From Heptranchias perlo (Eukaryota): 64,000 nucleotides of DNA. The stretch spans positions 186,001-250,000 of the forward strand of contig NW_027139268.1 in assembly GCF_035084215.1 (NCBI RefSeq). Reading direction: 5' to 3'. The notes beneath the pieces are model-generated. The model ran no database searches, was not told where the DNA came from, and was given only the letters and a program-made list of their open reading frames with translations. A program made the translations under genes and the position numbers. Shown one piece after another: positions 47,751 to 57,224 of this stretch (positions are counted from its first letter, which is position 1; every line of letters begins with the position of its first letter).

Positions 47751-47802
47751 ATGCTGCTGATCCTTTTCTCCATATCCCTGTGTTTTTCCCGGGTCTCTCC
47801 CG
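47751..47802 (+). CDS. MHC class I-like heavy chain, exon 1 (signal peptide MLLILFSISLCFSRVSP)
   Basis: Hydrophobic leader; phase-1 donor G|GTAAGT splices in frame to 50847. Confidence 0.8.
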
Positions 47803-47979
47803 GTAAGTACAGAATTCATCCTTCCAATCTCACTCTCTTTCTCTGCCATTTTCACTTCTCCAGCTCAGGGTCTGGGCAGGAAATTCCCTGGGATTTTACT
47901 GGGAGTGGGACTGTCTGTGAGTGCGGGGAATGTGTGTCGGTATATTGCACTCACAGGGGAACAAATGTCCTTTGTGTTT

Positions 47980-48545
47980 GCCTCTCACTCCCTGTTTGTC
48001 TCTCACTCCCTGTTTGTGTGTCTTTCTCTGTTTCTGTCTGATTCTCTCACTCTCTTTCTCTTTGTCTGCCTCTTTTGCTGTGTGTCTCTCTCTATCTCTC
48101 TGTCTCCCTCTCTGTTTCTCCCTCTGATTCTCTCACGCTCTTTCTCTTTGTCTGCCTCTTTTGCTGTGTGTGTCTCTCTCTGTCCCTCTGTCTCCCTCTC
48201 TGTTTCTCTCCCTCTTTCTCACTGTTTCCCTCTTTCTCACTGTTTCCCTCTTTCTCACTGTTTCCCTCTTTCTCACTGTTTCCCTCTTTCTCACTGTTTC
48301 CCTCTTTCTCACTGTTTCCCTCTTTCTCTCTCTGACTCTCCCTATCTGTTTCTCTCTCTGATTCTCACTGTTTCCCTCTTTCTCTCTCTGACTCTCCCTA
48401 TCTGTTTCTCTCTCTGATTCTCTCTGTTTCCCTCTTTCTCTCTTTCACTCTGTGTGTCTCTTTCTCCCTATTTCTCTCTCTTTCACTGTGTGTCTCTCTC
48501 TGTCTGTCCCTCTCTGTTTCTCTCACTCTCTCTCCCTTTTCCCCT
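47980..48545. repeat. CT-rich low-complexity tract including an 18-bp repeat (CTCTTTCTCACTGTTTCC)
   Basis: Direct observation. Confidence 0.85.
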
Positions 48546-48574
48546 ATCTGGTTAGAACTCTTCTTTCTGGCTCA

Positions 48575-50620
48575 AAAACACAAAAGGAAAAGCGGTCCAA
48601 CCCTGGCTAACAGAAGAAATTAAGGATAGTATTAGATCCAAAGAGGAGTCATATAAAGTTGCCAGAAAAAGTAGCAAGCCTGAGGATTGGGAGCAGTTTA
48701 GAATTCAGCAAAAAAGGACCAAGAGATTGATTAAGAGGGGAAAAATAGAGTATGAGAGTGAACTTGCAAGGAACATAAAAGTGGGCTGTAAAAGCTTCTA
48801 CAAGTATGTTAAAAGAAAAAGATTAGTGAAGACAAATGTAGGTCCCTTACAGTCAGAAACAGAATTTATAATGGGGAACAAGGAAATGGCAGAGCAATTA
48901 AACAAATACTTTGGTTCTGTCTTCATGGAAGAGAACACAAATAACTTCCCAGAAATGCGAGGGAACCAAGGGTCTAGTGAGAAGGAGGAATTAAAGGAAA
49001 TAAGGATTAGTGAAAAAAATAGTGCTGGAGAAATTAATGGGACTGAAAGCCGACAAATCCCCAGGGCCTGATAATCTGCATCTCAGAGTACTAAAAGAGA
49101 AATAGTGTCATTAGTAATTATCTTCCAAAATTCTATAGATTATGGAACAGTTCCTGCAGATTGGAGGGTGGCAAATTTAACCCCACTATTTAAAAAAGGA
49201 GGGAGAGAAAACAGGGAACTACAGACCAGTTAGCTTAACATCAGTAGTAAGGAAAATGCTAGAGACTATTATAAAGGATGTGATAACAGGACACTTAGAA
49301 AATATCAACAGGATTAGACAAAGTCAACATGGATTTATGAAAGGGAAATCATGTTTGACAAACCTACTGGAGTTTTTTGAGGATGTAACTGGGAGAATGG
49401 ATAAGGGAGAACCGGTGGATGTGGTTTATTTGGATTTTCAGAAGGCCTTTGATAAAGTCCCACATAAGAGGTTAGTGTGCAAAATTAAAGCACATGGGAT
49501 TGGTGGTAATATACTGGCATGGATTGAAAATTGGTTAACAGACAGGAAACAGAGAGTAGGAATAAATGGGGTTTTTTCGGGGTTGGCAGGCAGTGACTAA
49601 TGGGGTATCACAGGGATCAGTGCTTGGGCCCCAGCTATTCACAATATATATCAATGATTTGGATGAGGGAACCAAATGTAATATTTCCAAGTTTGCTGAC
49701 GACACAAAACTAGGTGGGATCGTGAGTTGTGAGGAGGATGCAAAGAGGCTTCAAGGCAATTTAGACAAGTTGAGTGAGTGGGCAAATACATGGCAGATGC
49801 AGTATAATGTGGATAAATGTGAAGTTATCCATTTCAGAAGGAAAAACAGAAAGGCAGAGTATTATTTAAATGGTGATAGATTGGGGAATGTTGATGTACA
49901 AAGGGACCTGGGTGTCCTTGTACACCAGTCACTGAAAGCAAACATGCAGGTGCAGCAAGCAGTTAGGAAGGCAAATGGTATGTTGGCCTTCATTGCAAGA
50001 GGATTTGAGTACAGGAGCAAGGATGTCTTACTGCAGTTGTACAGGGCCTTGGTGAGACCACACCTGGAGTATTGTGTGCAGTTTTGGTCTCCTTACCTAA
50101 GAGAGGATATACTTGCCAAAGAGGGAGTGCAGCGAAGGTTCACCAGACTGATTCCTGGGATGGCAGGACTGTCGTATGAGGAGAGATTGGGTCGACTCGG
50201 CCTGTATTCACTCGAGTTTAGAAGAATGAGAGAGGATCTTATTGAAACATGTAAAATTCTGACAGGGCTAGACAGACTGGATGCAGGGAGGATGTTTCCC
50301 CTGGCTGGGGGGTCCAGAATGAGGGGTCACAGCCTCAGGATACGGGGTAGAACATTTAGGACTGAGATGAGGAGAAATTTCTTCATTCGGAGGGTGGTGA
50401 ACCTGTGGAATTCTCTACTACAGAAGGCTGTGGAGGCCAAGTCACTGAATATATTTAAGAAGGAGCTCGATAGATTTCTAGACACAAAAGGCATCAAGGG
50501 GTATGGGGAGAGAGCGGGAATATGGTATTGAGATGGAGGATCAGCCATGATCATATTGAATGGCGGAGCAGTTTGAAGGGCCGAATGGCCCACTCCTGCT
50601 CCTATTTTCTGTGTTTCTGT
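48575..50620 (+). mobile_element. CR1 LINE ORF2 (RT) + 3' UTR in class I intron 1
   Basis: [56 protein letters not shown]; several frameshifts. Confidence 0.94.
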
Positions 50621-50846
50621 TTAACACCCCAACCTCTCGAGTGTGTCCCAGACTATCCTACGTGTACACACTGACTCCATCGAGTGTCTCAGTGACTCTG
50701 ATTCACTGTTTAATCAGATCTCCCGATTCTAATATCATACAGGATTCTGACGCTGAGATAAAGTGATGGATTATTGGAGGATCTGAGTATGTCGAGGGGC
50801 TACACCTCGTTTATTGACCTGTCCCTTTCACTTGTTTGTTTTACAG

Positions 50847-51107
50847 ACACTAACACATTCACTGTGCTGTACACGGCAGTATCTGACAGTGCCGATGTTC
50901 CCGAGGTTTTTAGCGTGGCAATGGTCAATGGAGTTCAAATAGATTATTACACCAGTAAGACCAGACAGATGATCTGCAGACAGCAGTGGATGACAGATGT
51001 TTTCAGTGTGGAATACTGGGAATATATCACAAACCTGGGGCACAAACATTCCACCATGGCAAAGGAGAGTCTCAATACCATAATGAAGGGGACGAACCAT
51101 ACATCCG
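50847..51107 (+). CDS. MHC class I-like heavy chain, exon 2 (alpha1)
   Basis: TTACAG acceptor, 261 nt, phase 1-1; motifs LYT, VNGVQIDYY, EYWE, N86 glycosylation site NHT; G|GTAAG donor. Confidence 0.9.
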
Positions 51108-55555: not shown

Positions 55556-56293
55556 GTGTCTGACGGTTGTTCTCATTATAATTTTGGGATCTTCTTTTCT
55601 CCCTCCTTCCAATGCCCTGCTCCCTTCTCCCAGACCATCTGCCTGCTCCTCCTGTGACCACATTGTTTAAAAGTCTCACAATATCTCACATGAGCCTCTT
55701 ATTCCAGCTCCTGATGGGACCCCAGTCTTGGGGGAAAGTTTAGATCCTTCCCTCTGCTGCAATCTTCAGCCATTCGCGGCTCTTTAAAGACTGCGCTTTA
55801 AATCCCCACCCCCACCCGTCAGGGGAGGTCCGTGTCACATGGGCGCTGCGCTCAGCCAATGCCAGTGGGTGTGTAAATGAGATGAGTGTGTGATTTGCGG
55901 GTGGTCAGTACGGGACTGGATTGGCTCCCAGAAGTCCAGGCTCAGCAGCGCAACATTGGGGCAAAATGGAGGTTTGGGGCCAGTGTGGTTCCCAAAACAG
56001 GCCCACTGGCACATCAGAAATATACACCTGGTTCTGGTCCTCAAGGGCAGTGCACCAGCGGCACTCACGGGTATCGAGTTCGAGAAGTGGGGGAGGGGAA
56101 GTCATGTGATAAAAATGGTGCCTATTATTTGAGATTTACCGTGATATTGCCTTCTATAATTCTGTCACGGTTCAGGAGGGGTTAACAAATCTAACCCCCC
56201 ATTTCTCCCTGATACTGGACCCCCTTTCCCCTCTGCTCAGACTATTTGTGGCTCTAACCCATCCCATTCCTGTATAGAGGAGAAAGACACACT

Positions 56294-56478
56294 GTGGGTA
56301 ATTTTCACCGATCTCACCGGGTGGGATCCCCATGGGATAGGGGGAATGAGAGTTTTACACTGTGCCCAATATTACTGTCCACTGACTTCAGTGCAGTAAA
56401 ATCGGGCAGTGTGTAAAACCAGTGTTGCAACCACTCCCGTTAGTTTCCTGACGGGTGGGTTAGGTTAAAATTGCGCCC
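56294..56478. mobile_element. older Harbinger-type MITE with an internal hairpin
   Basis: GTGGGTAATTTTCACC...GGTTAAAATTGCGCCC imperfect TIRs; TSD ACT; internal TTTTACAC..TGCCC / GGGCAGTGTGTAAAA. Confidence 0.7.
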
Positions 56479-56554
56479 ACTGTCTGAGTTATAAATGGAC
56501 ATTCTCCATTAACTATTGATTATTGATTATTGATCTCTGGTTGGCCACTGACAG

Positions 56555-56830
56555 GAATTCACATTTTCCAATGGATGAAGTCCGTTGAGATCTCTGAAGA
56601 CGGCTCCATTAAGAGATCAATGAGTGTTGGATATGACGGAAAGGATTATATTAGTTTAGAGCCAGACAGGATGAGATGGGTCGCAACCAATCACCTTGCT
56701 GTGAAGACCAAGGAGAAATGGGATTCTGATGAATCCTGGAACAATTATTGGAAATGGCAGTTGGAAGAAGAATGTGTTCAGAATTTAAAGAAATTTATGC
56801 ACCTTGGAAAGGAATATTTTGAAAGGAAAG
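56555..56830 (+). CDS. MHC class I-like heavy chain, exon 3 (alpha2)
   Basis: ACAG acceptor, 276 nt, phase 1-1; GIHIFQ, GYDGKDYISL, TKEKWD, EECVQNLKKF. Confidence 0.93.
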
Positions 56831-56945
56831 GTATTGATTTCCCATTTTCCCATTTTCTGATTGAACTTTCTGATCTATGAAACCGTTATCCCATTCCATT
56901 CTCTGTCTCTCTATTGTTTGTGTTTCCTCCCTTTTCCCCTTTCAG

Positions 56946-57224
56946 TTCAGCCTGAAGTGTTCATCTCCAGAAGTGACCCCAATAATCAGTACAACCCGCC
57001 CACTCTCTCCTGCCTGGTTACTGGATTTTACCCTGTAAACATCGAGGTGACCTGGCTAAGGAATGGTGAGCGAGTGTCTGAGAGCCAATCCTCGGGGGTT
57101 CGACCGAACCACGATGGGACCCATCAGATCAAGAAAGAGATTGAAGTAAATGCTGGGGATGAGGATCAATACTCCTGTCAAATTGAACACAGCAGCCTGG
57201 CAGAGGCAAAGGTCTATCAGTGGG
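56946..57224 (+). CDS. MHC class I-like heavy chain, exon 4 (alpha3, Ig C1-set)
   Basis: 279 nt, phase 1-1; LSCLVTGFYP, VTWLRNG, RPNHDGTHQ, YSCQIEHSSL; G|GTAAGG donor. Confidence 0.95.

Follow-up and report, generated by a model that had tools for sequence, protein, structure and literature searches.

Introduction

The nonclassical class I lineage UEA reportedly comprises three sublineages, occurs in sharks and is absent from rays and chimaeras, and is said to have lost the invariant peptide anchors and to possess a groove more hydrophobic than that of any other shark class I lineage; amphipathic ligands are reportedly suggested in the abstract of the study devoted to it. HLA-F, a single-copy molecule, has Trp at position 62 and retains both the C101–C164 disulfide and Tyr84. 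UEA is a described lineage (PMC10751288, PMC12562908), present in multiple copies in the MHC-Ib cluster alongside UDA and UFA (PMC10751288), and HLA-F ligands are peptides anchored at the C-terminus with a protruding N-terminus (PMC6525141). Here, we compare with these systems an MHC class I gene of the shark Heptranchias perlo, carried on the forward strand of the window analyzed, a stretch of 64,000 nucleotides.

Results

The locus holds a genuine immune gene of a shark, which is spliced and encodes the leader, a1, a2 and a3 of an MHC class I heavy chain. As the preliminary description had proposed, its four exons, which have AG/GT ends and are all in phase 1, join into an open chain, and the stop-free product of 289 aa matches residues 1–289 of NCBI XP_067834389.1 (P0004) without a difference, with Pfam domains MHC_I (E=4e-29) and C1-set (E=8e-18). 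The features of the locus are listed below by position in the window.

47275..47750, + strand: conserved promoter block with CCAAT/ATTGG boxes at 47537, 47560 and 47723 (predicted function)
47751..47802, + strand: exon 1, leader (17 aa + 1 nt); leader–a1 junction in contigs X1, X3 and X4
48556..50620, + strand: broken LINE-like retroelement in intron 1 (reading frame; dispersed matches)
50847..51107, + strand: exon 2, alpha1 (V7, Y59, G84, N86 glycan site), from splice analysis, contigs and numbering alignment
50975..50977, + strand: codon of the private Cys47, TGC here and TCC in four paralogues
51880..52879, + strand: tandem minisatellite (unit of ~49 bp) in intron 2, also in three paralogues
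56555..56830, + strand: exon 3, alpha2 (W97, M114, T143, K146, W147, W152, W156, Q159, N167, F171)
56584..56586, + strand: codon 101, Val (GTT); Cys101 is replaced throughout the family
56773..56775, + strand: Cys164 codon (TGT), its residue unpaired; the four paralogues encode Leu
56946..57224, + strand: exon 4, alpha3 (C1-set, both Cys retained; 1–3 nt off the paralogues)
57225..57265, + strand: 13-codon read-through into intron 4 that forms the end of the NCBI model (GT microsatellite, three Cys), not observed in contigs

As to the transcript that the preliminary description had called for, contigs with leader, a1 and a2 spliced were found in one sample, with 0 mismatches over a1; no run was recorded as RNA and samples X1–X4 were taken as such by guess, though their contigs are spliced. 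No contig identical to the 3' block of a2 (C164 and F171) was among those listed, which is no evidence of its absence.

Residues were numbered after HLA-A2 by anchoring on motifs, the control being the classical-like genes of the same genome, whose 8/8 anchors fall in the same columns. In this numbering the gene encodes V7, Y59, G84, T143, K146, W147, Q159, N167, F171, V101, C164 and C47, and retains the beta2m-contact residues H93, Q96, D119, G120, D122 and R48, so that the earlier calls on the N-terminal anchors, G84, the C-terminal anchors, the loss of C101, C164, the extra a1 Cys and the beta2m contacts were all correct. Judging from the retained contacts, the molecule can be predicted with good confidence to pair with beta2m. 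Four of the eight peptide-terminus anchors of classical class Ia (PMC4364491) are kept, and the C101–C164 disulfide of that class is missing: Val faces the classical Cys101 in PDB alignments and the gene has no Cys within one residue of position 101, which answers the concern that C101 might lie elsewhere in the alignment.

Contig C1101 carries five copies, among them this gene, which runs inverted relative to the other four; all four lack both C101 and C164. Across the family, C101 was found in 0/90 a2 domains and C164 in 10/95, whereas the non-family class I domains that these searches returned have C101 in 164/168 and C164 in 176/183; each member retains 2–6 of the 8 anchors, with a mode of 4 (33/68 rows). 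Because the missing disulfide and the worn anchors are shared family-wide, the H. perlo gene is, on sequence comparison, an ordinary member of a multi-gene shark family, its rare states being F171 (2/69 members) and C47 (1/78). Named family matches came from 11 genera, all of them sharks, in a word-based search whose absences are weak evidence. A homology search with the a2 exon gave no match among sequences of near length, the matches coming from longer ones.

In the tree, the family is a single branch (support 100/100) separate from the UDA, UAA/UBA-like and UFA/UGA-like genes; neither a UEA-labelled sequence nor the dogfish UCA was in this tree. The nurse shark sequence 'Gcirratum_UCA' (PMC10751288 supplement) has 63/92 identical positions in a2 (68%) and 79/93 in a3 (85%) by a by-eye count, and it lacks both a2 Cys, as does the dogfish UCA of the same supplement. 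The white shark homologue LOC121291255 lies within the MHC-Ib cluster, adjoining BRD2/B2M, and the H. perlo copies are flanked by a UDA-like gene on one side and a UFA-like gene on the other, so the multiple copies and the company of UDA and UFA that mark UEA are both found; the restriction of named matches to sharks and the partial anchor loss agree with the distribution and anchor loss reported for that lineage. Sequence, tree and genomic position thus make it very probable that the family is the described UEA lineage, of which the H. perlo gene is likely an already annotated member. The name rests on synteny and the 'UCA' label because no UEA-labelled sequence was among those compared (the string 'uea' has 0 occurrences in the PMC10751288 supplement). 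The novelty that the preliminary description attached to the gene is lost on the very ground that it had set for itself, as tree and supplement sequences place the gene inside a lineage that already carries these substitutions. Relative to UEA, the gene differs in its C164, private C47 and rare F171, in a groove that by a crude measure is not notably hydrophobic, and in that no transmembrane (TM) exon was found for it in the assembly.

The other lineages fit less well. UDA is characterized by a single copy, all anchors, the disulfide and clustering with nurse shark UDA; the H. perlo gene falls in a separate clade and shows 32% identity to P0258. Spiny dogfish UCA (Sqac, AF515705) resembles the H. 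perlo gene in V101, the absent a2 disulfide, W97, W152, W156 and the surroundings of Q96, but only 33/92 a2 positions are identical by eye and UCA lacks C164, T143, K146 and W147, all retained here; given V101, the absent disulfide and this low identity, the family is related to UCA but distinct. Classical UAA (Triakis P0261/P0159; PDB 6LUP) has the fold (TM 0.81/0.91 against 6lup in Foldseek), the exon phases, the N86 glycan and the beta2m contacts in common with the H. perlo gene, but identity is 34–39%, UAA has 8/8 anchors against 4/8, and the H. perlo gene lacks C101. The CD1-like UFA/UGA are nonclassical genes of the same genomic cluster, which one tree weakly places as sisters of the family (94/90, on long branches); they keep C101–C164, unlike the H. 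perlo gene, have lost T143 and more anchors, have more hydrophobic grooves, cluster separately and show 33–36% identity.

A structural model of the H. perlo chain (pLDDT 91.9) bore out the class I fold, its best matches being classical peptide binders, although it was built on an alignment with classical molecules and its shape may be biased toward them. A single-sequence model (pLDDT 44.5) was discarded. Within the family, the groove is conserved in its C-terminal half (W147, W156, W133 and M114 69/69; K146 62/69; T143 54/69) and variable in its N-terminal half, with an entropy of 2.01 vs 1.11 bits, and this division yields a testable ligand model. Position 84 is also variable (Arg in 12/69), and since G84 leaves the H. 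perlo gene without a carboxylate-binding Arg, the C-terminal end of its groove may be open as well. The family groove is further lined by W97 (50/69), W152 (68/69) and a hydrophobic residue at 63. By the Kyte–Doolittle mean over 43 groove positions, a crude measure, groove hydropathy is -0.01 for the H. perlo gene and 0.12 for the family; classical-like genes have values of -0.11 and 0.63, and those of UGA-like genes range from 0.46 to 1.06.

Discussion

Taken together, the gene is a spliced member of a nonclassical class I family that is spread across sharks and lacks the a2 disulfide, likely UEA and related to dogfish UCA, and its product would bind beta2m and hold a peptide by its C-terminal part, leaving the N-terminus free as in HLA-F. 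We regard this as the probable overall explanation. The ligand itself, a peptide anchored at its C-terminus and free at its N-terminus, we would put at somewhat under an even chance. HLA-F, a functional analogue but not an orthologue, likewise keeps C-terminal and has lost N-terminal anchoring, and its aromatic residue 62 has a counterpart in Tyr62 of the H. perlo gene. That HLA-F retains the disulfide lost here counts against the HLA-F-like view. So does the observation that HLA-A2 without C101–C164 no longer binds TAPBPR (PMC6926029).

The nonclassical nature and remodelled A pocket proposed in the preliminary description are supported; Tyr7 occurs in 0/78 a1 domains of the family. As for the accompanying idea of a non-peptide ligand, lipid is not favoured for this gene, its hydropathy being well below the UGA-like values. 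The same family might still take non-peptide or amphipathic ligands, such as a lipopeptide or metabolite, or have an aromatic-closed, receptor-binding groove, as in MR1, CD1 and FcRn; the Trp-rich lining with M114 and the hydrophobic residue 63, the occurrence of MR1 chains among sequence and fold matches, and the report of neighbouring UFA/UGA as lipid binders (PMC12562908, citing a personal communication) lend this some weight. We nevertheless consider it somewhat unlikely, because the low hydropathy extends to the family, T143/K146/W147 are retained where UFA/UGA-like genes retain 2–3 of 8 anchors, one classical-like gene of the same genome likewise has W152 and W156, and the top fold matches are classical peptide binders.

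As for the cysteines, C164 would be a scattered relic or reversion without a partner and C47 a private substitution, and Val101 would substitute for the disulfide by packing against residue 164. An alternative C47–C164 intrachain disulfide, or an inter-chain link leading to dimers, is suggested by the presence of exactly two Cys in a1–a2 and by the dimer-forming role proposed for C48 of the teleost S lineage (PMC4364491), but appears very improbable: C47 is one base away from TCC, the remaining C164 carriers have no C47 and form no clade (AU p=5e-7), and in the model C47 lies on the outer strand 4 of a1 and C164 in the helix of a2, positions that standard class I topology would put about four strands apart. 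It is the privacy of C47 and this presumed distance that speak against the intrachain bond raised in the preliminary description. C164 as the marker of one sublineage was rejected by the same test, with 5 changes. No statement of a2 disulfide loss in sharks was found in the available portions of the literature, subscription papers lying outside the search, and the published nurse shark and dogfish UCA sequences themselves display this loss.

The 3' end, on which the preliminary description was silent, admits more than one reading. No TM/cytoplasmic exon for the H. perlo gene was found in C1101:1-320000, where the exons of the four paralogues lie, these being the only four genome-wide, and hydrophobic stretches downstream of exon 4 included no credible TM exon. 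A 200-base N run ~3 kb past exon 4, indistinguishable from a mask, may be an assembly gap and could hide such an exon; between it and the a1 exon of the next UFA-like gene, a heuristic search gave no convincing leader exon, which suggests missing sequence. We lean toward membrane anchoring through an exon that the assembly does not include. A form that is secreted or truncated, ending after a3 with the Cys-rich 13-aa tail of the NCBI model and no anchor, would agree with the exon count, with an intron 4 that overlaps the paralogues by only ~90 nt, with the inverted orientation, and with the absence of a TM stretch from 16/76 family models (isoforms and partial models included); it is nonetheless unlikely, given the possible gap and contigs that end exactly at the a3 donor, none entering intron 4 (a3 is common with the paralogues, and rare forms are dropped). 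That the gene is a decaying pseudogene whose substitutions reflect lost function, as the preliminary description had allowed, would suit the missing 3' exons and the rare F171 and C47, but is highly unlikely: the frame is open, the splice sites are canonical, spliced contigs match a1, the a1 dN/dS is 0.27–0.59 vs paralogues (<1), and most substitutions are shared across the family.

The gene offers a handle on what UEA-type molecules bind and on the folding of a class I groove that lacks C101–C164, which is required for chaperone binding in mammalian class I. More speculatively, and with rather long odds for the picture as a whole, an ancient shark lineage may dispense with the a2 disulfide found in almost every class I molecule, combining a fixed Trp-rich C-terminal half-groove with an N-terminal half that varies by copy, N-overhanging peptides, a TAPBPR-independent route and convergence with HLA-F, the H. 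perlo gene perhaps being a secreted, cysteine-linked form.

Regarding the non-coding elements, positions 58671-59481, considered as colinear intron-4 sequence, proved to be a dispersed repeat and were rejected. The class of the intron-1 element, which we take to be LINE-like, was assigned from its motifs. The promoter block is common to three paralogues and the UDA-like gene.

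Gene structure and family membership

The MHC class I-like gene of Heptranchias perlo is a real gene of an already known class I kind, encoded by the following exons (window coordinates):

47751-47802, + strand, exon 1 (leader), canonical splice site, phase 1
50847-51107, + strand, exon 2 (alpha1), canonical splice sites, phase 1
56555-56830, + strand, exon 3 (alpha2), canonical splice sites, phase 1
56946-57224, + strand, exon 4 (alpha3), canonical splice site, phase 1

As claimed in the preliminary description, these exons splice in phase into an open leader-alpha1-alpha2-alpha3 chain. 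It has 289 residues and no stop, matches the start of the NCBI model XP_067834389.1 exactly and carries the Pfam domains MHC_I and C1-set. Residues were given HLA-A2 numbers by means of motifs, and classical-like genes of the same genome served as a control, having 8/8 peptide anchors in those columns. The earlier residue calls were correct: V7, Y59, G84, T143, K146, W147, Q159, N167 and F171 among the peptide-anchor calls, V101, C164 and the beta2m contacts, and an extra alpha1 cysteine, which lies at position 47. Four of the eight anchors are kept, the commonest number in the family.

A profile search returned 96 proteins, the named ones from 11 shark genera, and a second search agreed. Among 285 alpha2 domains (isoforms included in all counts), 98 with at least 50% identity to the subject alpha2 were taken as the family and 187 as other class I. 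C101 is found in 0/90 family domains having a residue there, 83 of which carry V, and C164 in 10/95; the corresponding figures for other class I are 164/168 and 176/183. The simplest history would be loss of C101 on the family stem followed by repeated decay or reversion of C164. The family forms a single branch (SH-aLRT 100 with 69 rows; 100/100 with 22 rows including named UDA and UAA). A single clade of five C164 carriers was rejected (AU p=5e-7).

For alpha1, 78 full domains were compared, from 93 aligned proteins shorter than 480 aa, partial and two misannotated rows being left out. Y7 occurs in none and N86 in all 78, while C47 is restricted to the subject gene. Cysteine at B-pocket position 45 was seen in 26/78 members, all in one alpha1 clade, and 11 others have a cysteine in the alpha1 helix. 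The traits peculiar to the subject gene (C47, C164, F171 and the missing TM exon) look incidental or assembly-related.

Lineage and neighboring genes

According to Verissimo et al. 2023 (PMC10751288), UDA (single-copy), UEA (multicopy) and UFA cluster beside brd2 and beta2m, and the white shark homologue (LOC121291255) is marked MHC-Ib within that cluster. The subject gene and its four paralogues on contig NW_027139268.1 (C1101, of which the window covers 186001-250000) are flanked by a UDA-like gene (14-23 kb) and a UFA-like gene (256-263 kb), both identified by eye against that paper's supplement, and the former also by tree:

C1101 about 41, 71, 98 and 132 kb, strand opposite to the subject gene, four paralogues
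C1101:256052-263114, UFA-like gene directly 3' of the subject gene (L046, L047)

A nurse shark sequence in the supplement's query file, 'Gcirratum_UCA', carries V101 and L164 and matches the subject gene, by eye, at 79/93 alpha3 and 63/92 alpha2 positions. Dogfish UCA likewise has V101, carries V at 164 too, and has 33/92 alpha2 matches by eye. Since UCA proper is known only from dogfish, the label 'Gcirratum_UCA' would denote the lineage published as UEA. UBA and UEA are given as the expanded families in a 2025 review (PMC12562908).

All four paralogues have V101 and L164, and their identity to the subject gene is 46-58% in alpha1, 77-81% in alpha2 and 98-100% in alpha3. The synonymous distance drops from 0.68-1.07 in alpha1 (dN/dS 0.27-0.59) through 0.13-0.16 in alpha2 to 0-0.03 in alpha3, which suggests that the alpha1 sublineages are old and that alpha3 was homogenised recently, by gene conversion. 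In every one of the four paralogues the TM exon is followed by a tandem array with a unit of about 90 bp and a length of up to about 8 kb (C1101:121000-129700 and equivalents). The NCBI isoform P0006 of one paralogue terminates through a splice to the conserved promoter block that belongs to the next array copy (window 47328-47486).

The UDA-like gene (C1101:23186-23755, L060) has the same leader exon as window 47275-47844 and a promoter block 96% identical to it (571 nt), despite only about 32% identity to family ectodomains; in the UDA proteins of four other sharks (P0256-P0259), one of them the nurse shark, the leader is identical to it or almost so. The pattern suggests that promoter and leader have been exchanged over a long time between two ancient lineages, UDA and the family.

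Transcription and the 3' end

The four sequencing runs (X1-X4) come from one sample and are guessed to be RNA, none being recorded as such. In each, one contig spans the alpha1 exon without mismatch and runs on into exon 3, with the leader junction visible in three. The alpha2-alpha3 joint at a GT..AG intron was found in three runs, in a contig with 7 differences from the subject gene in the 3' block of alpha2; because the four assembled paralogues differ from the subject gene there at 16-19 places, it is read as another allele or an unassembled copy. Among the contigs listed, which drop rare variants, none is identical to the subject gene across C164 and F171, and none enters its intron 4. 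The alpha2 3' variant with the 7 differences, found spliced in X1, X3 and X4 (window 56747-56828), implies D167 and Y171, and its sequence is not that of any of the five copies in the assembly.

Each paralogue has one TM exon, identical in sequence in all four; none was found for the subject gene in C1101:1-320000 or genome-wide, and its intron 4 has only about 90 nt in common with theirs. An N run of 200 bases lies about 3 kb 3' of the gene. If these Ns stand for an assembly gap, the 3' exons may lie inside it. The UFA-like gene points that way, since no convincing leader exon could be located from the N run up to the alpha1 exon of that gene. If they mask the sequence letter for letter, 200 bases leave no room for the TM exon plus the 339 nt of upstream intron common to the paralogues. 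The NCBI model terminates by read-through, adding 13 residues. On balance, the molecule is probably membrane-anchored.

Predicted structure and ligand

An AlphaFold model from a 122-sequence alignment (pLDDT 91.9) has classical class I molecules as its closest fold matches (TM up to 0.85/0.94), followed by MR1. In it, C47 (residue 61) is at the end of the fourth alpha1 strand and C164 (residue 178) inside the long alpha2 helix; by standard topology they would be about four strands apart, so the alternative intrachain disulfide envisaged earlier is unlikely.

In a comparison of 69 family rows, residues in the groove's C-terminal part proved conserved (W133, W147, W156 and M114 69/69; W152 68/69; K146 62/69; T143 54/69) and the A/B-pocket positions variable (entropy 2.01 vs 1.11 bits). 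Groove hydropathy of the subject gene is -0.01, within the classical range, and its groove includes the polar residues D34, S24, H70, K99, Q159 and N167. Together with the half-kept anchor set, these features lead us to propose, tentatively, a molecule whose heavy chain would pair with beta2m and grip peptides near their C-terminus while their N-terminal end stays unbound, in the way reported for HLA-F (PMC6525141); G84 may open the other groove end as well. The main rival, a closed groove or a non-peptide ligand, is somewhat less likely than this peptide model. Ligand loading may depart from the classical route, since TAPBPR binding by HLA-A2 requires the C101-C164 bond (PMC6926029), a bond described as well conserved (PMC8236899).

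Elsewhere, about a dozen near-identical copies exist of a class I gene related to UGA, whose groove is very hydrophobic (1.06); they lie at C1101:423555-435481 (L066, L067) and about 11 other places (L014-L025). Upstream of the subject gene, window 32515-33708 holds an open frame of about 398 aa with tandem C2H2 zinc fingers.
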